Assembly (NCBI GenBank): GCA_900555615.1
Contig: USMB01000002.1
Span: forward strand, 33,230 to 97,229
Source: an uncultured Clostridium sp.
GTDB lineage: Bacteria > Bacillota > Clostridia > TANB77 > CAG-508
Length of the DNA: 64,000 nucleotides
Direction: 5' to 3'
Shown one piece after another: positions 17,377-49,300 of this stretch; within the stretch, counting starts at the first letter, position 1, and each line of letters begins with the position of its first letter. The notes under the pieces are model-generated. The model was given only the letters and a program-made list of their open reading frames with translations. It was not told the origin of the DNA and did not search any database. A program made the position numbers and the translations under genes.

Positions 17377-17392
17377 AATTTGAGTGGTGCGA

Positions 17393-18230: not shown

Positions 18231-18283
18231 TAATATAAATGTAATATAAAAATGTTGACAAAGATAAAAATAGATAGTAAAAT
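18229..18283 (+). promoter_or_regulatory. Sigma-A promoter preceded by a tandem TGTAATATAAA motif
   Basis: tgtaatataaatgtaatataaaaatg, then TTGACA(18255-18260), 17-nt spacer, TAAAAT(18278-18283). Confidence 0.5.
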
Positions 18284-18376
18284 AAAATTAATTGATGAAA
18301 AAAGATAAAAATAAAAAAGATGAGGCTAAAATAAAAAAAAGAAAATAAAAGAACAAGGAAAAGGGAGAGAAAAAAC

Positions 18377-19597: not shown

Positions 19598-19645
19598 TTT
19601 TAACATTGCAAACCAATTATAAATCAATTACCAAAAAATATAAGG

Positions 19646-19670
19646 AGGATACCAAGAGGTGTCCTTTTTA
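19646..19670 (+). terminator. Rho-independent terminator
   Basis: aggatacc-aaga-ggtgtcct stem-loop (one G-U pair), then TTTTT. Confidence 0.65.
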
Positions 19671-19717
19671 TAATTGATGTCACAAAAATATTACAACAAT
19701 ATTACAAAATGCAAGTT

Positions 19718-19776
19718 AAATGTAATACAAATGTAACATAAAACATATTGAGATTGAATGGAAAATGATGTATAAT
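19718..19776 (+). promoter_or_regulatory. Sigma-A promoter preceded by the same tandem TGTAATAYAAA motif
   Basis: aaatgtaatacaaatgtaacataaaacat, then TTGAGA(19748-19753), 17-nt spacer, TATAAT(19771-19776). The inverted partner atattacaacaatattacaaaat lies at 19688-19710. Confidence 0.5.
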
Positions 19777-19824
19777 ATAATAAATAATTATCGATTATAA
19801 AAATACTAAAGACTGGAGGTTAAA

Positions 19825-21087: not shown

Positions 21088-21227
21088 AATTGTAAATTGA
21101 AATACAAAAATAGTGGGCTGATTCTAAATAAACAAATTGTAAAATAATGTAAAAATATATTAAAATTTTAAAAGCCTGAAACCTTAGAAATAAACGGGTT
21201 TGAAGTAAAAATAAAAATAAAAGAAAA

Positions 21228-21254
21228 AAGTGCTAAAAATGGCACTTTTTTTTT
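21228..21254 (+). terminator. Rho-independent terminator (part of the giant-gene 1 upstream cassette)
   Basis: aagtgcta-aaaa-tggcactt stem-loop, then nine T's. Confidence 0.7.
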
Positions 21255-21274
21255 GAAAAAAATCGCGAAAATTG

Positions 21275-21303
21275 TTGAAAAAAAACAGTGATTATGATAT
21301 AAA
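21275..21303 (+). promoter_or_regulatory. Putative promoter of giant gene 1
   Basis: TTGAAA(21275-21280), 17-nt spacer, TGaTATAAA(21298-21303). A second TTGAAAAAAA box sits 23 nt upstream. The whole cassette is duplicated upstream of giant gene 2. Confidence 0.5.
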
Positions 21304-21352
21304 TATATAGAGAAAAATATAAGATTTTTGAAGCAAAAGATGGAGGAAAAAC

Positions 21353-36300: not shown

Positions 36301-39300
36301 TTTACCAGAAGGAACAGGAATAAAAGAAGCTCTTGATATAGTAAAACCAATTTGGTCAGTAGAATCACAAACAGTAGACCTAGATAAACAAGAAGCAACA
36401 ATAATTATTAAAGGTACAGATAAATATTTCTCAAAAAGTACATTAACAAATGATACGTTACAATTAATAATGAATGGTTCAAAAGTAACTACAAATGACA
36501 CTGCTTCAGGAAGAACTCTTGAAATAACAGGGCCAAAAGAAATATATGAAGATTGGATAGAAAATGGAGCAACTTCACAACATTTAGTTGGAGTGGAATA
36601 TACAATTATAGCAACAGGATTTGCTGTTGATGAAGGACAAGTAAAAATAAGAATTCCAGAAGCAACCTTAACAGATAATTCAGAAAATAGCAGTAATGCA
36701 TTAGAATTTATGTTATACAGTTGTTTAAAAGCAACTAATACAGAAACATCAGCAACAAGTGGATTCTTAGGAAATACTTCAATTCAAAGACAAAACATAG
36801 AAAGTGTAACATTTGAATCTGGCTTGTCAAAGATGATTAGTAGCACAAAATGGGATGTATCAGCTGGAAATGATGGTTCAATAATGGCATGGTATAAAAC
36901 TGCAGCAAGTGGTGCTCTAGAAGTTTACATTGGAGGAACTACAGCAATATTTGCAAATCCAAATTCAAGTTATTTATTCGCAAATATTGGAACAGCAACA
37001 AAATGTACAGCAACAGAGGTTGTTAAGAATTTAGATTTAGTAACAACTAAAAGAGTAACAAATATGAGTTATATGTTCTTAAATACAGGTACAACAGCAA
37101 TGACAACATTAAATTTAGGCTCAAACTTTAATACAGAAAAAGTAACAAATATGACATCTATGTTTAGTGGCTGTGGAATAAATAAAATGTCAACTCTAAA
37201 CTTAGGTGGTAAATTCTACACAAGCGAAGTAACTCTTATGAATAATATGTTTAGTAGTTGTGGTAGATATGCATTAACAGCATTAGATTTAGGAGAATAT
37301 TTTGATACAAGCAAAGTAACAAATATGGCTGGAATGTTTAATTGTACAGGTTCAAGCCAAATGACAAGCTTTAATATTGGTAAAAAATTCGATACAACTA
37401 ATGTAACAAATATGTCTTATATGTTTAATATGTTAGGAAATGCAAAATTAACAAGTTTAGATTTAGGCGATTTGTTCTATACAACAAATGTAACAAATAT
37501 GGACTCAATGTTCTACAATTGTGGTTCATCTGCAATGACAACAATAGATTTAGGACCAGCATTTACAAAGATTGCTGGAACGAATACAAATTTTGCAATG
37601 AATTTTGGTAAATCTGGAGCAACATTGAATGCACCAGAGGCAATATATCAAGATAGCAAGAATTTCAGATTAGGAATTGAAAGTACAACAACACTAGCAT
37701 ATTCAAGAGGAACAATTACTCCAAAATATAGAACAGAATGGGTAGTAACTACAAAGACTGTTGATAAAACAAATAAAACAGTAAGAATAACATTGAGAGG
37801 AAAAACAAACTCACAATTAACTGTAGCAGAATATCCAGGTGGAGCAAATGGACTTTTAAGTAAGGATAAAGTAACAGTTTTGGTTGATGGAACAAATGTT
37901 AAAGCAGTACAAGATTCTATGGAAATTAGTTCTGCAAACTATATTACAAATTCTTCAACAAACAAGGTTGAAGTTGAACAAATAATAACCTTAAAAGACT
38001 TTGTTGAAGATGCAAGACAAACAGGAAAGAGTTATAAAGAATGGAGTGGAAATATTTCATTAAAAATAGCAAAAGATTCTGGACTAAAAGATGATTATGG
38101 AAGCGAAAATATAGCTCAAGACATAAATGATATAATATTAGCAGATGTAGTAAAGCCAGAATTTACTTATAAATATTCATCAACAGATATTAATTACACA
38201 AATAAAACATTAACAGTTGAATTTGATATAGTAGATAAGTATTTCTTTAGTACAACTTTGAGTGCTACGAATGCAGTAAATAATATTACAGTAAAAATGA
38301 TAGACATTAATGCAGTTCCAGCAAATATTACAAAAACATTGAAAAAGAAAACAATATCTGCAGATCAAACAAGTGGAAGCATTACATATAAAGCAAATGG
38401 AGATATTTATGAAAATTCAAGAAAAATAGGAGAAAGATATACTTTAGTAATTAGTGGATTAGAGCAAGCAAGTAAATCAGCAGATGGAAAATATAAAGAT
38501 TACAGTGGACCAATGAGTGTGGCATTCCCAGCAGGAGTAATAACAGATACATCTGGAAACACAAGTGATCAAATAACAATTACTGTTGGTATAGATGAAC
38601 CAGATAAATCTGGAATGCAAGAAATTGTGGATGTTGTAACACCAATTTGGGAAGCAAAAAGTACTACAATAGATAAATGGAATAAGAGAGCTATTATCCA
38701 ATTACAAGGAACAGATAAATATTATGCAAGTAATAGTTTAGACACTTCAAAAATTACAGTATATGTTGACGGAAAAGAAATCACAAATATTGAAAAAACT
38801 TTAAGTGAATCAACTCCATTAACAGAAACTAGAAATGGCCAAGAGATGCAGTATGGTGTTGAATATACATTAACATTAAGTGGATTTTCAGAGCCAGACA
38901 GTGAGTTTATGACAGCAAGAAAGAATGGAAGTAGAGAATATCGAGAATATAGTGGAAAAACCGAAGTAAAGATTGCGGCAGGAACATTATCAGATGCACA
39001 TAATACAAACAAAGAACAGACAATTTCATTAGGAAATGTTGATTGTTTGAAACCTGATATTATTTATGAAACTTCAAATACAACAATAGATCAAGGAAAC
39101 AAGATTTTAACAGTAGTGTTTGAGGTAACAGATAAATATTATAATGCATCAGCAAGTAGTTTGAAATTATCAGATTTAACAGTTACAGTTGATGAAAAGA
39201 CAATGACATCAGCAGAATTAACAGCAAGTGGAAATTCATTAACAGCAACAGCTTTAGCAAGTGGAAAAGGAACCAAATACACATTAGTAATTAAAAATTT

Positions 39301-42300
39301 ACAACAAAATCCAAATGATGGTGTTGATTACAGTGGTATAGTATCAATTGCAATACCTAGCGGTAAATTTGCAGATACTACAGGTAATACAAATGATGCT
39401 AAAACAATTACTATTGGTGTAGATACACCTACAAATGATGAAAATCATAATACAGGAACAATTGTCGATGTTGTTAGCCCTGTATGGAAAGCAGAAAATT
39501 TTAGAGCAAGTAGTGATAATACTCAAATATTAGTAGACCTTGTAGGAACAGATAAATATTTAGACACATCAAAAACATCTGTTGACCCAAGCAAGATTAA
39601 AGTAGTTATAAACAATCAAGACATAGAGGCAACAGCAGGAATTGCAGTTAATAAGTCTATTGAGTATAAAGGAACAAGAAGTGATATATTAACAGGTGCA
39701 AAAGATGTAATATATACATTAACATTATCAAACTTTAAAGAAAGTGATGAAACTTTCTTAGCAGCAAGAGCGGCAGGAACAAGATTATACAGAGAATATA
39801 GCGGATTTACTCAAATAGAAATGCCAGCAGGTCAATTAAAAGATACGTCAAATAATACAAACGTAAAAACAACATTAGATTTAGGAAACATAGATAGAAT
39901 TCCACCAGAAGTTGTAAAAGTATCTTCAACTGTTGATAAAACTAATAAGAAAGAAACTATAGTATTTGATATAGTAGATAAATATTTAAAAACTTCAACA
40001 TTAGGAACAACTACAACAGAAGCAAATAATAATTTATCAAAATTACATGTATTTGTAGATGATGAAGCAGCAGATAACATAACTAAAAAAATTACAAAAG
40101 TTGAGAAATTAACTGATACAATAGGAACTACAACAAATCAATTAATTGGATATAGATATACATTAGAATTAACTAATTTTGAAAAGAGTAAGAATTCAAA
40201 AGGAGTTAAGGATTGGAGTGGTACTGTAAGAGTTGATGTTGATGCTGCAGTGGCAATAGATACAAATGGAAATACAACTGACGAAACATCAATTGAATGT
40301 GATTTTGTAGACCTTATAAAACCATATCTAGAATATACTCACCAATCATCAGATATAAGTACAACAAACAAAACTTATACAATGAAATTTAGAATAACAG
40401 ATAAATATTATAAATCTGGAAAATTGACATTAAATGATTTAACAGTAAAAATTAAAAATGGTCAATTAAAAAATGGAAGCGAAATTGTTTATAATTTAAG
40501 TGATTTAGCAAAAGCAGGAACAGTTACACTTGCATTAAGTGATACAGAAATCTATGCAAATGACATATATATAACAGATGAAACAACTGGAGAAATAGAT
40601 GTTACTGATAAGAAACTAATTGGGCATGAATATACATTAAAAATGTCAAACTTAGAAAAATTACAGATTGCAGATGGAATGACAACAGCAGATTATAGTG
40701 GTATTATCAGTGTAGGAATAGCTGCAAATAAGGTATTAGATAGAACATATAATGGAAGTAATAATGGAAATACAGCATCAACAATAACTTCAGGTGTTAA
40801 TATTCCTAATGGAAGCGGAAATGGAACGGTTGTGGATGTGGTAGACCCATTAATTACAGGAGTTAGCACAGTAGCTGACCCAACAAAAGGTACAGCAACA
40901 TTAACATTTAGAGCAACAGATTCTTATTTTGCAAGTAGTTCAATATCAGCAGCAAATATACAGATATATGTAAATGGTACACAAAAAGCAGTAGGAGTTG
41001 CTTCAGGGGATGGAATTACAAAAACTCTATCTCAAACTTCAAAGACAGAGTCAAGATTACAAAATGGAACAACTTCAAATGTACAATATGGAATTGAATA
41101 TACATTAAATATTACAGGTTACCCAGCAAATATTAATCAGTTGAGAGTGGTAATTCCAGCAGGATTGGTAGCTGACCAATCAGGCAACCACAATAAAGAG
41201 AAATCATTTAACTTGTTTAATACTTTAGCTACAGCAGAATCAAGTCCAAGTGCAACAACAGCATTTATGGGTAATACATATGGAATTCAAAGAGGAAAGA
41301 TTGCACAAATAGTATTTGAAAGTTATATTGGAGGAACTTCAAGTACACGTTGGGATGTATCTGCACAAAAAGATCAATCTATTATGGCATGGTATAATGC
41401 AAATGAAAAACCAACTAGTGATACATATATTATCCATATAGGTAGTGAAACTTTAATTGGAGCAAATGTAAATTCAAGCAATTGGTTTAGTTATATTGGA
41501 TATGATGCTAATTGCAAGGCAACAAGTGAAGAAAGTGATCCAATTATAAAGAACTTAAAGATAATAAGTGTTGCAAATGTAACAAATATGTCAAACATGT
41601 TTGCATATCTTGGATATAGTAATATGACTACATTTAGTTTAAGCAGTAATTTCTATACAACTAGTGCAACAAATATGAGCGGAATGTTCAAATATGCGGG
41701 ATTTACAAAAATGACAACAATAAACTTAGGTTCAAACTTTAATACAAGTAAGGTAACCAATATGAATGCTATGTTTAATCATACAGGATATACTGCAATG
41801 ACTGGTCTAAATTTAGGTTCAGCATTCTATACAAGCAAAGTAACAAATATGGGGTCTATGTTTGGAGAAACAGGATATACTGCAATGACAAGTTTAAATT
41901 TAGGCACAAATTTTGATACTAGTGCAGTAACTTCTATGAGTTGGATGTTTAGCAACTGTGGACATGACAAGATGACAAGTTTAACATTAGGTGCTAACTT
42001 TAATACAAGTTTAGTAACAACAATGCAAGGAATGTTTAATGGGACAGGAAATAAATTATTAACAAGCTTAGACTTAGGAGATTTATTCTACACAACAAAT
42101 GTAGAAAATATGACAAATATGTTTAGTAACTGTGGTACAGGTGCAATGACATCACTTGACTTAGGACCAGCATTTACAAAGATTGCATCAACAAATACTG
42201 AATTTGCAACGAATTTAGGAAAATCAGGTTTTGTTGCCTATGTACCAGAAGCGATTTACCAAGATTCTACTCACTTTAGAATAGGTGGAGCAGGTTCAAC

Positions 42301-45300
42301 AGCAATTGCATGTACAAGTGGAAGAACGATAAATCCAAAATATAGAACAGAATGGGTAGTAGAAACAACAGCATTTAATACAACTAATAAAACTTTAGCA
42401 ATAACATTAAGAGGTAGAACAAATTCACAAGTAACAGCAAGTGAGTACAAGAGTGATGTAAGTGGAGGAATTACAGATAAAACTAAAGTAGAATTCTACA
42501 TGAACATTGGTGGTACATTAACAAAAATGTCTAATGTATCAATAAGCTTAGGAACAGCAAGTCAAACAACACAAAATGTATCTAAAGGAACAAAAGAAGT
42601 ATTACAAACAATAACAATTGGAAACTTAGAAGAAACTGCAAGACAATCTGGAAAATTATATAAGGAATACAGTGGAAATATTGTTGTTAAAGTACTTCAA
42701 GATTCTGGATTGAAAGATTCTTATGGTAATGGAAGTCAAAATATTGCTCAAAATGTTTCAACATCAGATGTAGACAAAAATACAACAGGAAAGCTATTTG
42801 CAGACTTTATAAAACCAGAATTCAATTATTTATCATCAGAAACAACAATAAATCATAATACAAAAACAGTTACAATATTGTTCAGTGTAAGAGATAAATA
42901 TTTTAGTACTTCAGGATTAACAGCAGATACAACAGCATCTAAAATTTCAGTAACAGTTGCTGATGAAGATGTAAATAGTAAGATAACTAAGAAATTAGAA
43001 ATTGTTGAAGAAGAAAAAGATGTAATAAATGGAAAGAACCAAAAAGTTGGAGAAAAATACAGATTAACAATAACAGGTTTAGACCATAATGATGGAACTC
43101 ATTACAGTGGAATAATGCAATTAGGATTTGCAAAAGATCTAGTAGCAGACTTATCTGGAAATAAAAATGATGCACAAACAATAACAATAGGAGTAGATAC
43201 ACCAAATGGATCAGGCTCTGGAAGTATAGTCGATGTAGTAGACCCAGTATGGAATACACAAAACTTTACAATAGATAAGACAAACAAAAAGATAACTGTA
43301 GACTTAATAGGAACAGATAAGTATTATTTAAGCAATAGCTTAACAACAGACAAGATTAAAGTTTTTGTAGATGGAAAAGAAGCATCAAGCATAACAAAAC
43401 AACTAAGTGCTAGTTCTTCAGTTACAAATGGTGTAAAATATACCTTAACTCTTTCTGGATGGGAAGAAGCAAGTGAACAAACAGGAAATATATATAAAGA
43501 GTGGAGTGGTATAACAAAGATTCAAATAGCAGCAGGAACATTAACAGATAAATATACTAATACAAGTAAACAACAAGAATTTACATTAGGACATGTGGAC
43601 TTTATAAAACCAGTAATTAAAAAAGTATCTTCAACAAAGAATTCAACAAATGGTACAGAAACAATATTATTTAATGTAATTGATAAATATTTAGATACAA
43701 CAAGTACATTATCAGCAAATGATATTACAGTTTATGTAGATAAAGTTGAGGCAACAGGATTAAGCAAGACATTAACAAAAACTTCAACACAATTTACAGC
43801 ATCAATCAATGGAAGTACACAAGTTGTAGGACAACAATATCAATTAGTATTGTCAGGATTTAAACAAGCTCGTTCAAGTATTGATTCTGCAAAGAATTAT
43901 ACAGAGTGGAGTGGAACTGTTTCAATAGATGTTGCAGCTGGAAAGATAAAAGACAAAATAGTTAGTCCAAATACAACTGCAAATACAAACAACAAAACTA
44001 CAATATATGGTGATTTCGTAGACTTTATAAAACCAGAAATTACTTATAAATATGCATCTTCAGATATCAATTATACAAATAAAACATTTACAATGGACTT
44101 CGAAATTACAGATAAATACTTTAACAGTATTACAGAATTGACAACTCAAAATATAACACAATATGTAACAATAAAAGTTGATGGGGTAGACATAACAAAT
44201 AATACAGCAATTACAAAAGAAATTATTTCTACAACAAATGTAACAGCTGGAACAACTGCAAAACCAATCAATAAGACTGTTAATGGGACAGTTCAAACTG
44301 GATTGACAAATCAAGTAATAGGAAGACATTATAAATTGAGAATATCTGGATTGCAACAAGCAATAAAAACAGGAAATACATTAGATTATAGTGGTGTTAT
44401 AACAGTTGCATTTAAAGAAGGAATTGCAACAGATACAACAACAAATAAAAATGCAGCAACAACAATAACTTCAGGAGTTAACTTACCAGGTGGTTCTGGC
44501 TCAGGAACAATAGTCGATGTTGTTGACCCAATGTGGGAACAAATCGGTAGAGCAAGCGTAGAAGCTGGTAAGGGAACAGCAAGTATGGTAATCAGAGGAA
44601 CTGATAAATACTTGAATAAAGTAACTAGTGCATTAACATCTGGAAAAATAACAGTAACAGTAAATGGAACAACTCCAACAACAACAGTAACAGTAAATGT
44701 ACAAGAAGATACTTCAATATCAGAGACATGGGCAAAACAATATAAAGTAACACTTACAGGATTTGATCCAAAGGCTTATCAGGTAGCATTTAAGATACCT
44801 GCAGGAGTGTTGGTTGATAGTTCTGGAAATACAAGTAAAGAAAAAGAATTTATCTTGTTTAGCAGTTTAAAGAAAACTGATACTGAAACAGCATCAACAA
44901 GTTTATTCTTAGGAATTACAGGAGTTCAAAGACAAAATGTTGAACAAGTAATATTTGAAGAATATATTGATGATTCAAAGACATTGTTTGATGTATCAGC
45001 AGCTCAAAATAGAACAATAATGGCTTGGTATGAAAAAACTTCAAGAAATACTTACATTGTTCATATAGGAAGTACAATAATAATAAATGGAAATGCAGAT
45101 TCAACAAACTTATTTAATTATGTTGGATATAGTACAAATTGTGCGGTTACAAACGAAACATCTAATAAGATAATAAAGAATATTGAATTATTACATGTAG
45201 ACAATGTAACAAATATGAAGAATATGTTCGCATATTTAGGCTATGGTAAAATGCAAACATTTAGCTTAGGAAGTGCATTTGATACAACAAATGCAACAGA

Positions 45301-45919
45301 TATGAGCGGAATGTTCCAATATACTGGATTTACAGCAATGACAAGTATAAACTTAGGAGGAAACTTTAATACAGCAAGTGTAACAAAGATGAATTCTATG
45401 TTTGACCATACAGGATATACTGCAATGACAGGATTGAATTTAGGCGGTAAGTTTAATACAGCTAAAGTAACAGAAATGAGTTCAATGTTTGCAGACACAG
45501 GATATACAAAGATGACAACATTAAACTTAGGCGGAGAATTTAGTACAGTAAAAGTAACTAAAATGGATTGGATGTTCAAAAATTGTGGACATGAAGCATT
45601 AACCGCATTAAACTTAGGAACTAAATTTAATACAAGTATAGTACAAACAATGGAAGGAATGTTTAATGCAACAGGATATAAAGCTATGGTAAGTTTGGAT
45701 TTGGGTGATAACTTCTATACATCAACAGTAACTAACATGGATAATATGTTTAATTCAACAGGTGCAGTGTCAATGATGGCATTGGATATGGGATCAAACT
45801 TTAAGAAGATAGCAGCTAAACATGCAAACTTTGCTACTAACTGCGGAAAGAAAGATGTTGTAATATATGCTCCAGAGGTAATATATTCAACACAAACTTC
45901 TTTCAAATTAGGGATATAG
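21353..45919 (+). CDS. Giant modular cell-surface protein (8,188 aa): signal anchor, ~17 tandem Ig-like ~100-aa repeats, multiple TDKYF-type beta-sandwich domains and six DUF285/BspA-like LRR-type repeat blocks
   Basis: One uninterrupted 24,567-nt ORF in the track. RBS GGAGG. N-terminal hydrophobic anchor. Repeat structure described in the findings. No LPXTG or C-terminal TM. Confidence 0.85.
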   Translation: MLKNKIIVKKIRNILILFMAILIMIGAYHNVRRSRAENVIEISMEVADKNNSLEKQTVTIDATETKNGVYLAELPTSVNGNRVTKYYTSDGEELEIDPASVEKITLELTEDELANKKISLGTEYDKKTAIIDDVETTLYNKEFINEDGDVIVTGYMPLDIQLDFTEIDANALKDIRLPSDDLTVKKSFGISIQEMIDVSKTTDKAETDDTTKTDGKNQVNDTTGLAENAQTNETEKQLIEYDSTKYGEDITIKIKQADSKEETVIYSFSDGTPVTEVVYTNTDGILSFLKNDNDKFIYTVKKQETTDNVASEEQVVDDTQDSDAVQIDEDTTTSDDSTIVNRPNNGPKKAQARAGSKVATLDTIWSHGESLGNGLNNAQNSNFFGLVPRGKISSITLLTSDGKDSSGNKINFDVSGAQSQSIATGGSVILYCIPNGSTYKAYMLPGSDVGTIKFNSDSKFIFSYLGYESSCTETEVVKGFFDSSSIVDTSGITQARAMFAHIGRNGSMRTLTIGPKFTTTSIKDTQDMFYECGFSNMTTLKFSSNFKLENATNLLSMFYRCGYNKLTSLDLSNMTTANATSMEHMFNMCGNQSLTSLKIGFNTSKVTNMHAMFANCGTEKLTTFSLGNNFNTSNVTDMGYMFEKFGGPLTELKLGSNFSTSKVTNMQGMFSQTGTKSMKKIQLGDKFTSIASGNYSDFLNNTGASGCKIYVPGAIYSNKHAVKLSTSSSTTISYTKGYIVGPDNAAPTWADNVNGAKYSATDHTYTMNLVGSDAVALDAEASTLTKGSTIKVKIGNSETSNYTLGATSLSSDENTKTFPLTINNYTGGAITITISAGTLIDLRENKSAAKTYNIASVDGTAPKWSSSVSGGTYSGTDKTYTLSLVGTDETSLDDSESKLTRGSNITVKVNNTSTSNYTLGNTTLSSDGRTKTFPLTISSYSGGTIVITITKGALVDRNGNTEASGATYTIRPNVDTTAPKWSSNVTNGSYSSTGHTYSLTITGTDETQLQSNKLSTFNTTVQVNGSKVTNLDFAQPVLSSDKKTITIKLTIKNYTGGKITIKIASGALIDATGNADTKGATYEFTPNTDVTAPKWNSSVNNATYSSSANTYTFEVVGTDETSLKTGLTLNASNAPITVNGSTASVTYGSGQYSNSNKTVTFKITVRNYSGGKIVMNIKAGALQDNGNPVNSSVAQNYTMDPQTDFTAPVWNGSINNGKLSGSTYTLNLIGTDETKLQQTTLSTSNVSVTVGGKSASFSFSNRGQGQLSNNNKTITFGMTISNFTGGNVTITINAGALKDTEGNLSVKQTYSFSVDGTAPKWNSSVTGGTYSSTAHTYTVKLIGTDETKLNDSMSALSSSNVTIKINGTPISTFSFKSSISSDYKTKTFTLTITNYTGGKITIQIDEGALVDTAGNKEANGAKYEFTPNIDSVVPAWKTSISGGTYSSTNHTYSFSLVGTDETALNNSASVLNYDNMLVTVNGTKVTRSNLVFGSTSISSDNKTKTFPITINGFTGGAVVITINSGALSDMTGNKSSEISYKFTIDGTLPVWSNAINGGTYDENAKTYTFKLVGSDETGIQQTTLSSSNVTVTMGGKTANVTFSNGGKGTINDKTITFELTINSFVGGQINISISAGALKDTSNNLSVAKTYSFSKDVTPPTWDSKITSTSYKNSIYTVNVTGTDETALNNSSSTLSSSNVTVTVNGTAVSASNLTFSGQLASDSKSKAFAIGIKSFTGGEIKIVINPGALTDTSGNKEKTGATYNLTADITPPAWGNATGKYNPDDQSYTITVTGTDDIELNTSASALTTSNSTLTVGGTAVTPTITKTASTSKSVTYEIKISKHTGGAISFKINAGALKDAQNNTSAEKTYTFAAVDAVKPTWASNISGGTYSNGTYSFSVVGSDETKLDTSKSVLSSSNFSVTTSGNAVSSSDITFGSPTLSSDGKTKTFPITIKNFKGGQVNITIAEKALYDTTGNWSVSKTYSFYKDITPPVWDDSIQNPLYNHSTKGYYFELVGTDETKLNTSSSTLTTSNVKITVGGTNTTNFTLGTATTSSDSKTKTFPITLNSYTGGEIIITVSAGALKDTAGNSSAVKEYKITPDITKPVWSYQNLTYDPDSMTYSVELVGTDETALNTNVSTLISTGSSKNLLVTCGGTSVTPTLEKTSTTSTKIIYKLTINDYPGGAVAITISEGALIDTSSNRSDHKVINLPEKDRTKPTLKVQNNNYSDDSGQYTFEVVATDETAIDTTRSNLAPNGSSKNITVKCGNTTIVPSITSRNTSDGKSIIYTVTISEYPGGTVSVAIDAGAIYDTTGNKSNSASFTLPAADVQKPQWADSAEFSYDENNSTVSITLTGTDDVGLNDSKSVLNLSTNLVIYNNGAVVSSENIKLGTPTISQDKLTKKFPITLNNFAGGTTSIAISKGALVDNSGKTSDAKTYNFTDMIKPKWYMDGNGSYNTKSKEYTITLDARDDTEIKTVNLTTSTMTVTVGGTAVTPTITQVTDGIQEKRYTITIPNYTGGTINITLNAGTIVDTAGNASIQTPFSVTPDVTAPLWKAGSAGYVNATTSDDVTIELLGTDTKMLATSNLTKQDLIVKYGDTIIDYDKINLSEVTYTNDGKGGVKYVLTLQEYTGEVVSVFLPAGTLTDQAGNTSVDTTLAIESILPPEDTDVPTVSGTQVKVDNLSQVIYITFDITDMSFDYTHHLTAEDFEVTKTYKVRNGYWGTKEETVTITPTIEIVRETRLTGKKGYRYKIKLTNVDITTTPLWGIGGTQSNPATIKVYLNKDAMLDRLSKGNEKTLLMNQQVTFESSTTDAAISLRSAIVNNTDDDKNLTIQLTVNKSNSWWGTFFFIPGIYGSTATNKKLSTDNIYDLRFDGVSVGDSSAIDITVEELTSSSTTTGGGFWWNQGTTTTTAVYRIILSNLEEALRQNLKSYKEWSGCVELDIGPSSDTIYTVRNEDEDLEGFEYKNTQDILFVDVIKPELEVKGVTINDEESDSATVNLQATDKYFSTYYTTNQTASFDKTKIYLTADGVKATEEETGVKLQWEKAKDVTETRSGEKKVIGITQSVTITGMKDNLDKKLKLVIEEGACLDNSGNPNERKEISLFSRLMSASTETAATSTFLNNPYAIQRQNVQSVEFRSSTTGLISNCAWDVSENQDGSIMAWYDGTGPYRVYIAGDGLIYANPDSSYLFSYVGYATNCTDTTVVKNLNLLNTKFATKMDAMFNYTGYRSMTGLSLGDKFDTSNVTSMNRMFDNCGYTRMGSLNLGTAFDTTKVTSMSLMFRNCGYTAMTSMELGTKFNTSKVENMTSMFYYTGYTAMTTLKLGNYFYTKSATNMSQMFNYTGASAMTSLDLGPAFTKIADTNTNFATGCGKNGSVTIYVGSSIYSTKNAFKLSADVTTTISYARGTINPKYKPDWTKVSTTLNTTDKNITVKLQGNVNTANYTGDALKSVINRLAMGTGDSSKITVKIDGTVANNLVKTVQTSVKGPANTVTAEIIISSFAETTVQSGKTYLEWAGNIAIQLAQGTLTDAYGNPNLAQLDGSAVEIKDATIDKNTDGKMFADFIKPKLMYEQSSVVVDKTGKTVTIVFSITDKYYASESLDVSKLSIRVDGTDVSEIPSIKKTLTKSTSSTGVKYTLVLSEFEQDSIASGKRYLDYSGSITVTVPAGAVLDKSGNGNVTEGLGIGPQNTIVKDNASNLAEIDLVRPSWQLQPNKGVTLDFASKTVTIPLEVTDKYFSTSTLTNNIKLLVNGAESTSGGTISIQSGPTNITETRGGNTVLIGHSYTVKITNISVDSGQLGVRILEGAASDTSGNTSSQKDILLLNRLKETNTETAATSGFLGSASNTNATIKAIQRQNINKVVFESGISSAVYNHTTKTISDATRAWDVSKAGDQSIVAWFVDSEKSNGTYVIHIGSEGGILANTDSSYLFANIGSSANCKSIVAIANLSLLDVSTVTNMNYMFTNTGKQAMTELDLGTNFSTSSVTTMVGMFQGAGYNAMTTLTLGNLFVTTKVTDMNNMFNETGYKALKSLNLSTFNTASVTNMQRMFRATGHDSMTTLTLGSNFNTAKVTNMLGMFANCGYGSLTALNLGGAFDTGNVTDMSYMFTGAGHDSMTGLNLGSLFKTSKVTNMSYMFQNTGAGKMTTLTLGSNFNTSAVTNMSYMFNGTGSSSMQSLVLGGYFYTSKVTNMTSMFEACGQGSIKTIDLGPAFTNVSSTNTNMLKTLNNTNIYTGTAIYSNENAVRLNLNSSTTVSFERGKIIAKYQPEWQKSTTTPDTANTAITVVLRGIVNATNYAGYNKNITNKFANGTTTQITVAIDGESTPNSRIIKTISGASSTAAESVQCNVRLTGFNEGYISSKGYKEWSGNVALNIPQGTLTDAYGNPNLAQEIKEDAVEKNTAGDLFLDSIKPEIIYEYSETTINHDSQTVTVGFRVTDKYFANTLLTVEQLASQITVKVDSEAVNVEKEVREIKALNEPVNGQNRTVGKKYELVISKLDQGDGIRYSGPMQIVFPTGIVKDASNNTNTGKTISIGVDDPVNDAEHKSEVIVDVVKPVWSVENLKITQVNGKAQATMDLIGTDKYLNKTNSKSLTPNEIKVFVDGVDITSIATGLSKSLAGPIDIDNGIKYTLTITNLEESYDAFIAARNANKRVYREYSGDVTLEVPEGKLVDNSGNKSSKLSVKVGIVDTLKPEIVKVSSTVNPTAKTETIIFDVTDKYFGTILDEQTLLSKLHVFVDEEAADSITKQITNVETLTDTVDGISKTVGKRYTLVLSNFEKEGLQSGYEFKGISGTVKVTVDAEIATDSNGNTSNSATLAGDFTDFIEPSVVYRFSKPASGANSVTITFDVTDKYYKSGDLTLADLALKMQNGKNLSNYIDMKTISGAQIQFGTPSNVTCPTAMNKTVNGTVQKGLTNQIIGRRYTITISNLEQAQIKDGDQYLEYSGNVQIGVAKGKVKDQGNNTNLAQTITFGINLPEGTGIKEALDIVKPIWSVESQTVDLDKQEATIIIKGTDKYFSKSTLTNDTLQLIMNGSKVTTNDTASGRTLEITGPKEIYEDWIENGATSQHLVGVEYTIIATGFAVDEGQVKIRIPEATLTDNSENSSNALEFMLYSCLKATNTETSATSGFLGNTSIQRQNIESVTFESGLSKMISSTKWDVSAGNDGSIMAWYKTAASGALEVYIGGTTAIFANPNSSYLFANIGTATKCTATEVVKNLDLVTTKRVTNMSYMFLNTGTTAMTTLNLGSNFNTEKVTNMTSMFSGCGINKMSTLNLGGKFYTSEVTLMNNMFSSCGRYALTALDLGEYFDTSKVTNMAGMFNCTGSSQMTSFNIGKKFDTTNVTNMSYMFNMLGNAKLTSLDLGDLFYTTNVTNMDSMFYNCGSSAMTTIDLGPAFTKIAGTNTNFAMNFGKSGATLNAPEAIYQDSKNFRLGIESTTTLAYSRGTITPKYRTEWVVTTKTVDKTNKTVRITLRGKTNSQLTVAEYPGGANGLLSKDKVTVLVDGTNVKAVQDSMEISSANYITNSSTNKVEVEQIITLKDFVEDARQTGKSYKEWSGNISLKIAKDSGLKDDYGSENIAQDINDIILADVVKPEFTYKYSSTDINYTNKTLTVEFDIVDKYFFSTTLSATNAVNNITVKMIDINAVPANITKTLKKKTISADQTSGSITYKANGDIYENSRKIGERYTLVISGLEQASKSADGKYKDYSGPMSVAFPAGVITDTSGNTSDQITITVGIDEPDKSGMQEIVDVVTPIWEAKSTTIDKWNKRAIIQLQGTDKYYASNSLDTSKITVYVDGKEITNIEKTLSESTPLTETRNGQEMQYGVEYTLTLSGFSEPDSEFMTARKNGSREYREYSGKTEVKIAAGTLSDAHNTNKEQTISLGNVDCLKPDIIYETSNTTIDQGNKILTVVFEVTDKYYNASASSLKLSDLTVTVDEKTMTSAELTASGNSLTATALASGKGTKYTLVIKNLQQNPNDGVDYSGIVSIAIPSGKFADTTGNTNDAKTITIGVDTPTNDENHNTGTIVDVVSPVWKAENFRASSDNTQILVDLVGTDKYLDTSKTSVDPSKIKVVINNQDIEATAGIAVNKSIEYKGTRSDILTGAKDVIYTLTLSNFKESDETFLAARAAGTRLYREYSGFTQIEMPAGQLKDTSNNTNVKTTLDLGNIDRIPPEVVKVSSTVDKTNKKETIVFDIVDKYLKTSTLGTTTTEANNNLSKLHVFVDDEAADNITKKITKVEKLTDTIGTTTNQLIGYRYTLELTNFEKSKNSKGVKDWSGTVRVDVDAAVAIDTNGNTTDETSIECDFVDLIKPYLEYTHQSSDISTTNKTYTMKFRITDKYYKSGKLTLNDLTVKIKNGQLKNGSEIVYNLSDLAKAGTVTLALSDTEIYANDIYITDETTGEIDVTDKKLIGHEYTLKMSNLEKLQIADGMTTADYSGIISVGIAANKVLDRTYNGSNNGNTASTITSGVNIPNGSGNGTVVDVVDPLITGVSTVADPTKGTATLTFRATDSYFASSSISAANIQIYVNGTQKAVGVASGDGITKTLSQTSKTESRLQNGTTSNVQYGIEYTLNITGYPANINQLRVVIPAGLVADQSGNHNKEKSFNLFNTLATAESSPSATTAFMGNTYGIQRGKIAQIVFESYIGGTSSTRWDVSAQKDQSIMAWYNANEKPTSDTYIIHIGSETLIGANVNSSNWFSYIGYDANCKATSEESDPIIKNLKIISVANVTNMSNMFAYLGYSNMTTFSLSSNFYTTSATNMSGMFKYAGFTKMTTINLGSNFNTSKVTNMNAMFNHTGYTAMTGLNLGSAFYTSKVTNMGSMFGETGYTAMTSLNLGTNFDTSAVTSMSWMFSNCGHDKMTSLTLGANFNTSLVTTMQGMFNGTGNKLLTSLDLGDLFYTTNVENMTNMFSNCGTGAMTSLDLGPAFTKIASTNTEFATNLGKSGFVAYVPEAIYQDSTHFRIGGAGSTAIACTSGRTINPKYRTEWVVETTAFNTTNKTLAITLRGRTNSQVTASEYKSDVSGGITDKTKVEFYMNIGGTLTKMSNVSISLGTASQTTQNVSKGTKEVLQTITIGNLEETARQSGKLYKEYSGNIVVKVLQDSGLKDSYGNGSQNIAQNVSTSDVDKNTTGKLFADFIKPEFNYLSSETTINHNTKTVTILFSVRDKYFSTSGLTADTTASKISVTVADEDVNSKITKKLEIVEEEKDVINGKNQKVGEKYRLTITGLDHNDGTHYSGIMQLGFAKDLVADLSGNKNDAQTITIGVDTPNGSGSGSIVDVVDPVWNTQNFTIDKTNKKITVDLIGTDKYYLSNSLTTDKIKVFVDGKEASSITKQLSASSSVTNGVKYTLTLSGWEEASEQTGNIYKEWSGITKIQIAAGTLTDKYTNTSKQQEFTLGHVDFIKPVIKKVSSTKNSTNGTETILFNVIDKYLDTTSTLSANDITVYVDKVEATGLSKTLTKTSTQFTASINGSTQVVGQQYQLVLSGFKQARSSIDSAKNYTEWSGTVSIDVAAGKIKDKIVSPNTTANTNNKTTIYGDFVDFIKPEITYKYASSDINYTNKTFTMDFEITDKYFNSITELTTQNITQYVTIKVDGVDITNNTAITKEIISTTNVTAGTTAKPINKTVNGTVQTGLTNQVIGRHYKLRISGLQQAIKTGNTLDYSGVITVAFKEGIATDTTTNKNAATTITSGVNLPGGSGSGTIVDVVDPMWEQIGRASVEAGKGTASMVIRGTDKYLNKVTSALTSGKITVTVNGTTPTTTVTVNVQEDTSISETWAKQYKVTLTGFDPKAYQVAFKIPAGVLVDSSGNTSKEKEFILFSSLKKTDTETASTSLFLGITGVQRQNVEQVIFEEYIDDSKTLFDVSAAQNRTIMAWYEKTSRNTYIVHIGSTIIINGNADSTNLFNYVGYSTNCAVTNETSNKIIKNIELLHVDNVTNMKNMFAYLGYGKMQTFSLGSAFDTTNATDMSGMFQYTGFTAMTSINLGGNFNTASVTKMNSMFDHTGYTAMTGLNLGGKFNTAKVTEMSSMFADTGYTKMTTLNLGGEFSTVKVTKMDWMFKNCGHEALTALNLGTKFNTSIVQTMEGMFNATGYKAMVSLDLGDNFYTSTVTNMDNMFNSTGAVSMMALDMGSNFKKIAAKHANFATNCGKKDVVIYAPEVIYSTQTSFKLGI
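22930..23420 (+). repeat. DUF285/BspA-like ~26-aa repeat block 1 of giant gene 1
   Basis: Iterated ...MF..CG...LTSLDLSNFNTSNVTNM..MF... units. Confidence 0.55.
23590..29350 (+). repeat. Tandem array of ~17 Ig-like ~100-aa repeats (coding, giant gene 1)
   Basis: Each unit follows [A/K/P]P.W...V.GGTYS...HTYT..LVGTDET.L...S.L..SNVTV.VNGT.....F....LSSD.KTKTF.LTI..YTGG.I.I.I..GAL.D..GN. Confidence 0.6.
31000..31500 (+). repeat. DUF285/BspA-like repeat block 2 (giant gene 1), preceded by a WDVS...SIMAWY lead-in
   Basis: Same ~26-aa periodicity, ending ...LDLGPAFTKIADTNTNFATGCGKNG. Confidence 0.55.
33230..34040 (+). repeat. DUF285/BspA-like repeat block 3 (giant gene 1)
   Basis: As above, about 10 units. 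Confidence 0.55.
37040..37620 (+). repeat. DUF285/BspA-like repeat block 4 (giant gene 1)
   Basis: As above. Confidence 0.55.
41560..42230 (+). repeat. DUF285/BspA-like repeat block 5 (giant gene 1)
   Basis: As above. Confidence 0.55.
45190..45860 (+). repeat. DUF285/BspA-like repeat block 6 (giant gene 1, C-terminal)
   Basis: As above. The protein ends 20 aa after the block. Confidence 0.55.
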
Positions 45920-45942
45920 TTTATATAACTAATGCTGAGAGG

Positions 45943-45979
45943 GAGCGGAAAACTTTTAAAGAGTTTTCTGCTCTTTTTT
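45943..45979 (+). terminator. Strong rho-independent terminator of giant gene 1
   Basis: 12-bp stem gagcggaaaact/agttttctgctc (one G-U pair), 7-nt loop, then TTTTTT. Confidence 0.75.
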
Positions 45980-46227
45980 ATTGCTGTTTAACTAATTTTT
46001 ATAAAATATACAATAATTGTAAAAAAACTCTTGCTAAATAGAGTAAGACGTGTTATATTAATAATGTACTTGAATTTAGTACAAAACAACTTAGTGTTTA
46101 CACAAAATAAATTTTTGATTTTTTCAGTAATTTTATTCAATTCTAACTGAAGAAAAAATAAGGAAAATAAAGACGTAAAACAGTGGTAAAAAAGCTTGAA
46201 AAATAAATAGAAAAAAACTTAGAAAAA

Positions 46228-46354: not shown

Positions 46355-49300
46355 ATGTTAAAAAAGAGAAAAAATGTAAGAAAAATAATAGTATTATTAA
46401 TGAGTATAATTTCAATAATAAGTCTTGGTATAAATTTAAATAAAGTAACAAAAGAAAAATATAATCCAGCATTAAATTTATATAATGCTAGTGAAACGAT
46501 AAATATAGACAAAGGTGAAATAGATCCAATATATAGACCAAAGTGGGAAAAAGTATCAAGTTCTTTTAGTGCAGCCAATAAAACACTAACTGTTATAGTA
46601 AAAGGTTCTGCATATGAAAATAAAACAATAGATGCAAATACGCAAATAAAGTATGCAAGTGATGTAATAAGTACTTTAAGTGCATCAAATGTAAAAGTAT
46701 TTATAGATGGAGTAGAGGTAACAAGTACAACAAATCCAACAGTAAAAATAACAGATACTAAAACATCAACAAATACAACATCAGGAAAAAAAGAAGTAAC
46801 ACATACAATTCAGTTATCAAACCTAGAAGAAGCAGTAAGACAAGCAGGAAAAAACTATAAAGAATGGAGTGGAAATATTGCATTAAAAATAACAGGAAGA
46901 GGTCAAGATGAAAGTACATATTCATCAAATGTATTAACAGATGCTGATGGAAATCACAGCATGATGGAAATCCAAGAAGATGGAGCATGGGTAAATATAG
47001 AATTAAAAGATACAAAAACAGACCATAATACAGATAATGTAATGTTTGCGGATTATATAAAACCAGAATTCACATATGTATATGCAGCAAAAGATATAGA
47101 CCATACAAACAAAACATTAACAATAGATTTTTCTATAACAGATAAATATTTTGATAGCACAAAATTGATAACAGATACAAATGGAACATTAACAGCAAAT
47201 CAATCAGTAGTTAATCAAATTACAGTTGCTATGAAAGATGATGCTACAACAGCAGTAAATACTAAAGTAACAAAGAAAATAACCAATATTCAATATATAA
47301 CAGAAAAAAGAGATAATGAGAATGTAAGAATTGGAGCAAAATTTACTTTAGTAATTGGAAATTTACAACAAGAAACATCAAGTGGAAATTATAGAGATTA
47401 CAGTGGCCCAATGAGTATAACATTTCCAAAAGAAATTGCATCAGATAAATCTGGAAATCAAAATGATGCAAAGACAATTACAATAGGTATAGGAGAACCA
47501 AGTAATTCTGGAAGTCAACAAATAGTCGATGTTGTAGACCCAGTATGGAGAGTTGAAAATTTACAAAAAACAGTAAATAGCACAACAGGAAAACTTACAG
47601 CAACAATGGACATATATGGAACAGATAAATATTTTAAGCAAAGTACATTAACAGCTGAACAAATTCAAGTATGGGTAGATGGAGTAAATATTACAGCATC
47701 AGGAAGTACAGCTAAAATTTCTAGAACATTGACAAAAGTAGAAGATTTAACAGAACAAAGAGATGGAAAAACAGTAACATATGGAATTCATTATAAATAT
47801 ACAATAACGGACTTGGAAGAAACTGATGCATTATTTAATGCAGAAAGAGCAAAATATGCAGCTAACACAAGTACTGGTAGAGTATATAGAGAATATTCAG
47901 GAGATATGAGTATTGTAATACCAGCTAATACAATGGTCGACAATTATACAAATACAAATAAAGCTTTAACTTATTCTTTAGGACATATAGATTCAATAAA
48001 ACCAGAAATTATCAAGATATCTTCAACAAGAGATGCAACAAACAAAAAAGAAACGTTTGTATTTGATGTAGTAGATAAATATATTGCAAGTTCAGCATTA
48101 GGAACAACAGTAACAGAAGCAAATAATAACAAATCTAAAGTACATGTATTTGTTGATGGAGAGGCAGCAGATAGTGTAACAAAGAATTATACAAGAGTAA
48201 CTCCGTTATCAGCTAAGATTAATGGAACAAGCAAAGTTGTAGGATATAGATATACATTAGAATTAACAGGATTTGAAAAAGCAAGAACAGCAATTAACTT
48301 TAATAGAGAATATTCTGATTGGAGTGGTAATGTAACATTAGAGATTGATGCAGGGGTTGCAAAAGATACTGCAAATAATTTTAGTGTAAAAACAGTATTT
48401 ACAGGAGATTTTGTAGATTTTATAAAACCAAATGCAACATATCAATATGCAACAGCTGATATAGATCATACAGATAAAACATTTACAATGGTGTTTGATG
48501 TAACAGATAAATTCTACAGTTCAGGAACATTAGCAATAGGAGATTTAACAATTAAGATAGATGGAAAAGATGTAGATTGGAACAAAGTAAGCAAAAGCTT
48601 AACTGTTGCAGATAGACAAAATACTGTAAAAATCACAGAAAACGGAGTAGTAAAAAGTGTAACAAAAACAATTGGTAAACGTTATACATTGAAATTATCT
48701 AATTTGGAGCAAATCCAAACAAGAGATACATCTGGAAATTACATTTCTTACAGTGGTGTAGTTACAGTAGCAATACCAGGAAGTAAGTTTAGTGATACAG
48801 GTGTTGATGGACAAAATACATCTCCAAATAGAAATGATGGAACTACAATAACTTCTGGTATAAATATTCCAGGTGGAAGCGGAACAGGACAAGTAGTCGA
48901 TGTAGTAGATCCATTAGTAGAAAGATTAAATTCATCAGCTAATGCAGTAAATAAAACTGCTACAGTAAAATTCAACATAACAGATAAATATTATGATGCA
49001 ACAAAGGCTGCATTAACACAAAATGATATGAAAGTTCTAGTAAATGGAACAGAAGTTACAGGAAAAATAACAGGATTTTCTACTAAGGCATTAACAGAAT
49101 CAAAAACAACAAATGGTACAACTTCACAAGTACAATACGGAGTTGAGTATACAGTAACAATATCAAACTTTGATACTTCTGCAAATCAAGTATTACTTAG
49201 AATACCACAAGGTAAAGTAATAGACCAATATGGAAACAGTAATAAGCAAACAGATTTGATTTTATACAATGTATTAAAATCAGCAGCATCAGAAGCAGAT

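Follow-up and report, generated by a model that had tools for sequence, protein, structure and literature searches.

Probable transfer of a single beta-sandwich module between two tandem giant genes for surface proteins in an uncultured gut bacterium (Bacillota)

The 64,000-nt stretch of DNA analysed here (the window) belongs to a low-GC, spore-forming bacterium of the human gut, an uncultured member of the Bacillota, and carries two consecutive giant genes of about 30% GC on its forward strand. Giant gene 1 (g1; 21353..45919, +) is a single ORF of 8188 aa. Its product begins with a hydrophobic anchor or signal, followed by tandem repeats of ~111 aa among other elements; DUF285 (BspA-type LRR) arrays appear in a tandem-array scan with a period of 87 nt and match Pfam with E values of 1e-39 to 3e-62; matches to a module HMM reveal many beta-sandwich modules of ~150-170 aa, arranged in super-repeats of ~4 kb. 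Giant gene 2 (g2; 46355..64000, +) is present as its 5' 17.6 kb and continues past the window end: the ORF exceeds 5880 aa within the window, and its ortholog in contig ERZ927244 k127_44744 encodes 7412 aa. ORF structure, Pfam and the module HMM all give g2 the same kind of architecture as g1. In both genes, the DUF285/BspA-like LRR family (Pfam PF03382) scores 107-208 bits against a cut-off of 25, in 4-7 stretches per half-protein. A literature search for DUF285 giant proteins returned matches on algae and giant viruses alone. An intrinsic-terminator-like hairpin with a T-run (45936..45980, +) lies 17 nt past the stop codon of g1, a position that points to separate transcription of g1 and g2; three terminator-like sites were found, against 0.1 expected.

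One segment of g1 has a counterpart in g2 that is out of keeping with everything around it. The g1 copy (42797..43252, +; aa 7149-7300) and the g2 copy, in ‘unit B’ (51107..51562, +; aa 1585-1736 from the ATG at 46355), agree at 419 of 456 nt (91.9%) and at 130 of 152 aa, with zero gaps and both in the coding frame; the offset between them is constant at 8310 nt, a multiple of 3. A blastn comparison of the two genes scored this block at E = 0.0 and 638 bits, whereas the second-best g1-g2 HSP reached 75.9% identity, and the block is the sole repeat of 100 nt or more to reach 84% identity in the 42.6 kb of giant-gene sequence (21353-64000); chance is thereby excluded as its origin. When the 19 full copies of this module type in both genes are compared over the HMM envelope, the block pair shows 88% nucleotide identity, the next pair 71% and the median pair 54%. 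The edges are sharp: at both ends identity drops from 87-100% to 27-50% within one 30-nt window, and ungapped identity at the 8310-nt offset stays at 27-50% on either side, which is background for sequence of 30% GC.

A preliminary description of this DNA had placed a nearly identical pair, differing at only a few positions, at 42815-43240 and 51125-51550, within flanking homologous modules 70-75% identical. The two segments are indeed there, and the sequence quoted for them agrees; the alignment and sliding-identity plot that it proposed as a check put the block above its flanks, with a high-identity tract slightly longer than the one described. ‘Nearly identical’ was too strong, as this pair matches at 397 of 426 positions (93.2%) and so holds 29 differences. 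The figure for the flanks was imprecise: it does not describe those at the same offset, which are not homologous in register; values of 65-76% belong to the best paralogous modules elsewhere. The antisense ORFs noted at 42987..43259 (−; 90 aa) and 51297-51566 (its twin; 89 aa) are present and do specify near-identical peptides. Both are low-complexity and Leu/Phe-rich, and run opposite a coding strand rich in A; the pair is a by-product of the sense-strand repeat, consisting of mechanical ORFs that are not considered genes.

The block corresponds to exactly one complete module of 152 codons, beta-sandwich plus C-terminal linker, and each of its ends falls on a conserved inter-module junction motif. 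In the g1 copy the 5' motif is GACTTTATAAAACCA (42803..42817, +), encoding D-F-I-K-P, with its g2 equivalent at 51113-51127; the 3' motif, GATGTAGTAGACCCAGTATGG (43232..43252, +), encodes D-V-V-D-P-V-W and opens the next module, and its g2 equivalent at 51542-51562 reads D-V-V-S-P-V-W. The high-identity tract terminates at this 3' motif. The motif, in its general form D-F/V-I/V-K/D-P, stands at the start of 38 modules across both genes, with partial conservation of its nucleotide sequence as well. An AlphaFold2 model of the g1 block (pLDDT 78.7, pTM 0.76) places the strands within residues 8-131 and a low-confidence linker at 135-152. The module has zero matches in Pfam; Foldseek found nothing significant for the model in the PDB (best E 0.027, TM <=0.37), and the known Ig-like adhesin families (SdrE/MSCRAMM, Big, Cna-B) gave no significant match in sequence or fold. 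As modelled, the module is a beta-sandwich without assignable family. Its relatives are numerous all the same: members of the module family turn up in 134 or more protein clusters, of which many exceed 3,000 aa. As there is no Pfam model and no PDB relative for so widespread a module, it merits a family description of its own. A word-indexed protein search with the block returned a 161-aa fragment only, and an exhaustive HMMER search was used for homologs; the word index seems to cover giant proteins poorly. The block peptides found no relative among GTDB species genomes, though there is a MAG with 99% SerS identity.

The surroundings of the two copies have other relatives than the copies themselves. 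The slot in g2 that is collinear with the g1 block is occupied by the unit C module (54968..55444, +), which is only ~64-65% identical in nucleotides to either block copy (dS 0.55-0.67); per window, the g1 block matches the unit B copy at 93-96% and this collinear module at 68-73%. Just outside the block, g1 returns to unit C: the upstream flank (42300-42524) finds its best match at g2 54447-54575, with g1 flank matches of 71-89% overall, and the downstream flank (43200-43874) at g2 55418..56040 (+), the unit C segment nearest to g1 there (71-85% per 150-nt window; 75.9% over 709 nt). On the g2 side, the conserved pre-module segment upstream of the copy (50325..51106, +) shares 82-91% identity with unit C (54210-55013) and 75-90% with unit D (58830-59464), and is background-like against g1. 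For g2 50325-51100 the best match is g2 54210-55013, and g1 takes over precisely where the block begins. Units B, C and D resemble one another up to the module start, where identity stops in every pair. Both copies are thus mosaic: the two g1 flanks and the g2 upstream flank are all nearest to unit C (54.4-56.0 kb), the link between g1 and g2 at 51.1 kb is confined to the block, and tract and flanks have discordant closest relatives. Synonymous divergence within the block is reduced as well: dS is 0.21 (pS 0.19) in the block pair versus 0.40-0.67 (pS 0.31-0.44) in six comparator pairs, which reflects shared ancestry and not constraint alone.

The reading we consider probable is that one module was copied between the giant paralogs by non-allelic gene conversion, that is, by segmental replacement. 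From the tract and its boundaries, the discordant flanks, the low dS and the recurrence of both copies in other assemblies, we infer an event in which one 152-codon module would have been copied into the corresponding slot of a different super-repeat in the other gene; a double crossover or a patch replacement would be equivalent descriptions. The exchange would end within the short junction motif common to all modules: these motifs, with the ~65-70% identity of the resident module, were the only homology available, so resolution there is the likely outcome. The preliminary description had spoken of recent gene conversion between the paralogs and of exchange still under way. The sharp edges, discordant flanks and low dS support its core idea of a transfer between the two genes, probably non-reciprocal, over ordinary divergence; its ‘recent’ and ‘ongoing’ are not established by a pair with 8% differences and a dS of 0.21.

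Both copies have discordant flanks, and donor and recipient therefore cannot be told apart from the window alone; comparison with other species points weakly to transfer from g1 to unit B of g2. The 13 nearest homologous modules in giant proteins of other species (45-55% aa identity) are all followed by a downstream module of the g1 type, and modules in a context of the g2-B type rank 14th or lower among the other-species homologs. In a neighbor-joining tree of 75 homologous modules, the block pair stands alone on a long branch, and the tree does not orient the transfer; the weak signal comes from the ranked distances.

The age of the transfer can be judged from other metagenome assemblies. 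Both block copies, with their own flanks, recur with 0-2 differences each in other samples and from other assemblers (L006, L091 and L095/L097), and the g2 copy also recurs in L088 and L094. Within five genomes the g1 and g2 blocks differ at 37, 39, 39, 39 and 37 sites, whereas orthologous copies differ at 0-2; paralogs within these genomes are not closer to each other than orthologs are, as concerted evolution would have them. Because the same 37-39 differences are found in five independent assemblies, the founding transfer is old: it took place before the sampled strains diverged, with no re-homogenisation since in those five genomes. The block transfer is the youngest duplication-like event in either giant gene, yet old on the population scale. 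About 8% of sites have come to differ between the copies since, under purifying selection (dN/dS 0.25), which marks both as functional parts of their proteins.

Other genomes lend some weight to a second perspective, in which exchange at the block is still active in natural populations: the block would be a recombination hot spot with central patches passing both ways, imports from foreign sources or a third paralog, and unequal crossovers giving rise to tandem duplications that carry hybrid genes with a g2 N-terminus and a g1 C-terminus. We regard this as a real possibility, at somewhat less than even chances. Once in place, the block may itself favor such events, as it now forms a 456-nt island of homology between otherwise dissimilar regions, on which piecemeal exchange and unequal crossing-over could draw. 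Of eight genomes, two have copies with a homogenised central stretch of ~230 nt (0-1 differences), the 5' and 3' ends of the block being still distinct; the homogenised center is g2-type in ERZ779869 NODE153 and g1-type in ERZ825324. Nested tracts of other lengths are found in L093 and L101. A third block allele, roughly equidistant from both copies (35-42 differences), occurs in two samples (L089 and L103): the g2 copy of L089 has a ‘third-type’ center with more than 20 private variants, set in flanks 98.5-99.75% identical to the window, and this haplotype recurs in the second sample (L103 = L004). Finally, scaffold L005 carries P0006, a hybrid in perfect collinearity, g2[1-1584] + block + g1[7301-8188], in a layout like that of a tandem duplication, with the switch at window-equivalent position 43139.

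In every g1/g2 mosaic the exchange is non-reciprocal and its limits coincide with the longest exact-match runs (60, 49 and 47 nt), the pattern expected of bubble collapse in de Bruijn assemblies at 2.8-6.7x (~3-7x) coverage; for this reason too, the ongoing exchange of the preliminary description is not established. A comparison of flank haplotypes sorts the mosaics into two flank groups, each of which also holds non-mosaic copies, and the mosaic copies share no private flank markers. In L005 the two copies of 6418 nt match each other at 100%, as expected from an assembler looping through a repeat, and no further hybrid context was seen among 22 other block copies. The second occurrence of the third-type haplotype is on a contig (L004) of 0.7x coverage, with unrelated sequence on both sides; that contig had been a candidate g1 ortholog and was demoted on these grounds. 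The five genomes with zero homogenisation also weigh against continuing activity. Mosaics, third allele and g2::g1 hybrid, then, hint at continuing exchange, and are indistinguishable from low-coverage assembly artefacts. As a side observation, the hybrid gene on L005 is flanked by genes for PD-(D/E)XK ‘Rpn-like’ nucleases.

The fullest version of this perspective would make the block a standing hot spot, with repeated bidirectional patches, imports of a third allele, and 9.3-kb duplications by unequal crossover that yield a hybrid gene of 2624 aa (g2 N-terminus, g1 C-terminus). We think this unlikely; were it true, the hot spot would be a mechanism for combinatorial shuffling of giant surface proteins in a commensal.

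A third perspective supposes that the two copies in the window arose by separate conversions, each with an unsampled third paralog or another strain as its source. One or both copies could have such an origin, since a third allele, equally distant from each, circulates in the population (L089 and L103), and the data include neither the final ~1,500 codons of g2 nor the remainder of the genome. A 30-mer scan of the metagenome collection recovered no third copy, every copy standing in a g1 or a g2-B context, and a donor for the third-type center was not found in any fetched locus. Much the same holds for a 27%-divergent patch at 53.9-54.5 kb between the window and L006, for which no paralogous donor was found in the available sequence. 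One transfer is also more parsimonious than two, and independent conversion seems to us quite improbable.

Could the similarity be explained with no transfer at all, the block pair being simply the slowest-evolving one, held alike by strong purifying selection on a binding function? The substitution pattern gives this idea its appeal: dN in the block pair is 0.054, versus 0.25-0.41 in the comparators, and dN/dS is 0.25, versus ~0.6-0.75 in other module pairs. As the excess similarity is greater at non-synonymous than at synonymous sites, part of the signal may come from additional constraint on this module. Constraint does not account for synonymous divergence at or below about half that of every comparator, for identity that falls within a few bases at both ends, for flanks and block with different closest relatives, or for a module in the collinear slot of unit C that is so much less similar. 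We judge the absence of any transfer to be very unlikely.

An artefact of the window's own assembly, by a chimeric join or a collapsed repeat, has still less to recommend it. Giant repetitive genes do mis-assemble easily, and the structures of L004 and L005 are suspicious; but a collapsed repeat would be 100% identical, whereas 37 differences are seen here, the reading frame is intact through both copies, and the recurrence of both copies and their flanks within 0-2 nt, in independent assemblies made by different assemblers, refutes it. Programmed diversification, whether by the template and variable repeats of a diversity-generating retroelement or by silent-cassette antigenic variation, might be thought of on seeing two near-identical segments inside surface-protein genes, and is almost certainly not the explanation: the 37 mismatches (24 transitions, 13 transversions) involve all bases (g1 base A 12, T 12, C 7, G 6), with adenine at 12 of 37 where it makes up 44.5% of the block, a lack of adenine bias on which the retroelement was rejected; no reverse transcriptase was found in the ORFs of the 21 kb upstream of g1 (NCBIfam/Pfam, covering most ORFs of at least 100 aa; the region downstream of g2 is outside the window); both copies lie in frame in long uninterrupted ORFs (8188 and >5880 aa) and not in silent cassettes; and there are only two copies in the window, with the same two contexts throughout the metagenome scan.

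If a single transfer between paralogs is accepted, the module swap is an ordinary mode of evolution for repetitive surface-protein genes, and nothing conceptually new. Its interest is that the giant modular surface-protein genes of this uncultured gut Bacillota lineage would evolve by swaps of whole modules too, beyond point divergence and change of repeat number, which bears on how binding or antigenic surfaces change in such proteins. There is a practical implication also: hybrids or ‘converted’ versions in public metagenomes, P0006 for example, should be distrusted unless they have read-level support, because the length and similarity of the block are just sufficient to confuse short-read assemblers.

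Several known systems invite comparison. Neisseria pilE/pilS, Borrelia vlsE and Mycoplasma genitalium MgPa/MgPar work from many silent donor cassettes, with switching at high frequency. They resemble the present case in segmental, non-reciprocal copying into a surface-protein gene; they differ in that here there are two copies, both in intact ORFs, and five genomes have remained unchanged since the strains diverged. In repeat-rich surface proteins of Gram-positive bacteria, and in BspA-like (DUF285) LRR proteins, concerted evolution and module shuffling are familiar, and change comes mainly through recombination among the repeat units. The giant genes have a similar modular build, in which LRR arrays stand beside repeated Ig-like beta-sandwich units. 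Unlike in array-wide concerted evolution, the modules within each gene are unhomogenised (median 54% nucleotide identity), and the block would be a single, isolated event between genes.

A close parallel is found in Helicobacter pylori, in which babA/babB/babC chimeras arise by non-allelic (ectopic) gene conversion between adhesin paralogs (PMC4552749; PMC3960876). In both cases a segment of one paralog is, or appears to have been, replaced by a homologous one; the closest relatives of tract and flanks differ; and hybrid genes turn up in some strains, in the present case as a candidate. The setting here is different: tandem giants of 7-8 thousand codons in a gut commensal of Gram-positive type; a tract of exactly one internal repeat module, where the bab tracts take in an N- or C-terminal half; and a surrounding homology of only ~65-70%. 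In genomic layout the nearest counterpart is giant1-5 of Apilactobacillus kunkeei, tandem genes for extracellular proteins of 3,000-8,000 aa, whose very uneven divergence between strains has been attributed to short intragenic recombination, with dS several-fold greater than dN (PMC12863079). Both loci consist of consecutive giant genes for extracellular proteins; the domains differ, beta-solenoid and alpha-helical repeats in A. kunkeei and DUF285 LRRs with beta-sandwich modules here. What sets the present locus apart from giant1-5 is that one module appears quite clearly to have moved between the two paralogs.

Two giant genes stand in tandem in this window of 30% GC: g1 (21353-45919, 8188 aa) and g2, which begins at 46355 and runs beyond 64000 (more than 5880 aa in the window; an ortholog has 7412 aa). 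The 436-nt gap between them contains a strong terminator-like hairpin. Each protein has a hydrophobic N-terminal segment, DUF285/BspA-type leucine-rich repeat arrays (period 87 nt), and dozens of modules of about 150-170 aa that match nothing in Pfam and are arranged in super-repeats of about 4 kb. One segment is shared far more closely than the rest: g1 42797-43252 and g2 51107-51562 align without gaps, at a constant offset of 8310 nt and in frame in each gene, with 419 of 456 nt (91.9%) and 130 of 152 residues identical. The preliminary description had placed this block at g1 42815-43240 and g2 51125-51550; it is real, and its extent becomes 456 nt. Within the narrower coordinates identity is 397/426 (93.2%), so that the 'few' differences reported there number 29. 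The two antisense ORFs reported over the copies are also present, as mechanical consequences of the repeat. The second-best alignment between g1 and g2 reaches 75.9%, no other repeat above 84% occurs in the 42.6 kb of giant-gene sequence, and within 30 nt of each block end identity is at background (27-50% ungapped).

The block coincides exactly with a single module. It opens with codons for F-x-D-F-I/V-K-P and closes with those for D-V-V-D/S-P-V-W; both ends are instances of one junction motif, partially conserved at the DNA level, that opens 38 modules across g1 and g2. This module type has 19 full-length copies, and over the HMM envelope the block pair reaches 88% nucleotide identity, against 71% for the runner-up pair and a median of 54%. 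From the 19 copies AlphaFold2 gives a beta-sandwich (pLDDT 78.7, pTM 0.76) and, after it, a Gly/Ser-rich linker of low confidence; a Foldseek search with the model returned no significant solved structure (best E 0.027, TM at most 0.37), only a generic Ig-like resemblance. With neither a Pfam model nor a PDB relative, the family appears to be undescribed so far. Exhaustive HMMER searching nonetheless found it in at least 134 cluster representatives at the 50% identity level, 56 of them at E <1e-30. Many of these proteins are giants of 2,500-7,740 aa, and some share N-termini with g1 or g2; in some, Laminin_G_3-like domains or large stretches of unrelated sequence are inserted. Identity to the block is at most 55% in the family proteins checked, except for the search matches P0003, P0006 and the fragment P0001.

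The case for transfer comes from the best non-self match of every 150-nt window around both copies. Upstream (42300-42524) and downstream (43200-43874) of the g1 copy alike, the nearest relative is super-repeat unit C of g2 (54447-54575 and 55418-56040, 71-89%); inside the block the nearest relative switches to unit B of g2, which carries the second copy (93-96%), against only 68-73% for the unit C module in the collinear slot (54968-55444). Around the g2 copy, the 780 nt upstream are nearest to units C (82-91%) and D, the block is nearest to g1, and the sequence downstream has no close relative. A four-way alignment reproduces the pattern. In it, whichever two of units B, C and D are compared, their identity stops where the module starts; the 5' edge of the block is therefore a general module boundary. 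Synonymous divergence within the block (pS 0.19, dS 0.21) is well under the values for six pairs used as comparators (pS 0.31-0.44, dS 0.40-0.67), among them block versus unit C and flanks versus their relatives in unit C. Selective constraint alone, which might have kept two old copies alike, is ruled out by the discordant flanks together with this low dS; a diversity-generating retroelement is ruled out because the mismatches have no adenine bias. The edges, flanks and dS thus support a segmental replacement of one module, which would have occurred by non-allelic gene conversion or double crossover. The dN/dS since transfer, 0.25, indicates purifying selection on both copies.

As both copies have discordant flanks, the window alone fixes neither donor nor recipient. 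Ranked module distances in the giant proteins of other species weakly favour transfer from g1 into g2 unit B: a g1-type downstream module follows each of the 13 modules closest to the block (45-55% aa), and modules set in a g2-B-type context make up a subtype a little further away (rank 14 or lower). A neighbour-joining tree of 75 homologous modules gives no guide to direction; the block pair stands by itself there on a long branch.

Gene conversion was proposed earlier as recent and ongoing; conversion itself is supported, and those two qualifiers fare less well. Beyond the window, 22 further block copies (21 complete) were gathered from two loci, SAMEA7045307 scaffold_2547 (L005) and ERZ927244 k127_44744 (L006), and by scanning metagenomes for a 30-mer of the block. 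Twenty sit consistently in g1 or in g2-B surroundings (for L092 the downstream flank only was checked); the exceptions are a hybrid on L005 and the contig L103, identical with L004. In five genomes, the window included, the two copies differ at 37-39 sites and orthologous copies at 0-2; the founding event is therefore older than the divergence of these strains, with no homogenisation in them since. 'Recent' is true only relative to the far older duplications of other modules.

Other assemblies look different. ERZ779869 has a g2-type centre in both copies and ERZ825324 a g1-type centre in both: the central ~230 nt show 0-1 differences and the 5' and 3' ends remain distinct. L093 and L101 have nested tracts. 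The g2-context copy L089 has nearly identical flanks around a centre of a 'third type', in which more than 20 variants are private, and this centre recurs in L103/L004, from another sample. On L005, the hybrid P0006 joins g2[1-1584] + block + g1[7301-8188] in perfect collinearity, switching at window-equivalent 43139: the layout expected of an unequal crossover within the block.

Such mosaics would also be produced by de Bruijn bubble collapse in low-coverage assemblies. Every g1/g2 mosaic is non-reciprocal and edged by the longest stretches of exact identity that the copies share (60, 49 and 47 nt), as collapse at the reported coverages of 2.8-6.7x would have it; mosaic copies have no private flank SNPs in common; the two 6418-nt arms of L005 are 100% identical, as an assembler loop would make them, and L004 has 0.7x coverage and unrelated sequence at its ends. 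The third-type allele is the sole pattern beyond the reach of a collapse between g1 and g2. Continuing exchange at the block in populations is therefore possible, if slightly doubtful.

These two contigs have further features. L005 reads nuclease gene, hybrid gene, nuclease gene, g2; at 9260-10404 (and 1-1111) a 280-aa PD-(D/E)XK 'transposase'/Rpn-like nuclease gene (Pfam PDDEXK_2, E 7e-43) takes the place of ~160 nt of the window's intergenic sequence (45981-46141), whose g1-g2 gap has no such gene, and adjoins the possible crossover product. L004 (1368 nt) is probably chimeric: a 698-nt piece with the third-type block and g1 downstream flank lies between two unrelated ends (1-145 and 848-1368), one GC-richer and non-coding, the other with an sbcD-like nuclease gene. 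P0001, the 161-aa 'protein' called on this contig, arises artefactually from the join.

Away from the block, g1 and g2 are both strongly mosaic among strains. In a 99.9%-identical strain (ENA scaffold LIJU14-1 scaffold_298, L001) g1 has 8299 aa rather than 8188; alignment pieces (window 24968-25318, L001 9986-10003) are offset by 333 nt (111 codons) within a ~111-aa tandem-repeat region, and repeat copy number therefore differs among strains. Compared between this stretch and L006, g2 is identical in most 300-nt windows, with sharply divergent patches at 46403-47300 and 53903-54499, the latter, in a DUF285 array, with up to 83 differences per 300 nt; no paralogous donor for these patches was found in the sequence at hand. 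The L006 g1 ortholog is 58-91% identical in amino acids to about residue 6470 and 92-100% thereafter. It is called as two ORFs 6 nt apart (1-9994 and 10001-22639; >3718 and 4212 aa), either through a stop or frameshift splitting the gene in that strain or through sequencing error.

The neighbourhood 5' of the giant genes holds housekeeping and sporulation-associated genes: rlmD, serS, murC, a U32 peptidase-like gene, a SagB-like glucosaminidase, a SipL/LysM protein and yunB. The glucosaminidase (579 aa) lies beside a second secreted-looking protein (567 aa, three cadherin-like beta-sandwich domains) at 9745-13192 (+); a tRNA gene occupies 13318-13390. A 177-aa ORF at 2207-2740 (-) covers only the C-terminal part of the adenylosuccinate synthetase profile (positions 294-401 of 416); it could represent a truncated gene, or one that is longer and starts elsewhere than listed. 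A 420-aa neighbour protein has an identical copy on human-gut metagenome contigs. SerS is 99% identical to that of the Hadza-gut MAG CAKOTX01, labelled 'uncultured Clostridia bacterium'; the next relatives (72-92%) come from MAGs labelled uncultured Clostridia, Bacilli, Erysipelotrichaceae and Acholeplasmatales. In this species-representative MAG serS lies on a 114-kb contig, CAKOTX010000004.1; a peptide scan of the whole GTDB genome collection found no block relatives. The giant-gene region there may be missing, truncated or different.

Set against known systems, cassette-type antigenic variation is ruled out, there being no silent cassettes and only two copies, as is array-wide concerted evolution, since modules within a gene are only ~54% identical. 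The locus serves as a warning on assembly artefacts; the main worth of the block is as a cleanly delimited exchange of one module. The tandem giant1-5 cluster of Apilactobacillus kunkeei is similarly organised; its authors saw pervasive recombination among strains and no recent conversion between paralogs (PMC12863079). In Helicobacter pylori, chimeras of bab paralogs document ectopic gene conversion (PMC4552749), and the process here is of that ordinary kind, together with module shuffling, among paralogous surface-protein genes.
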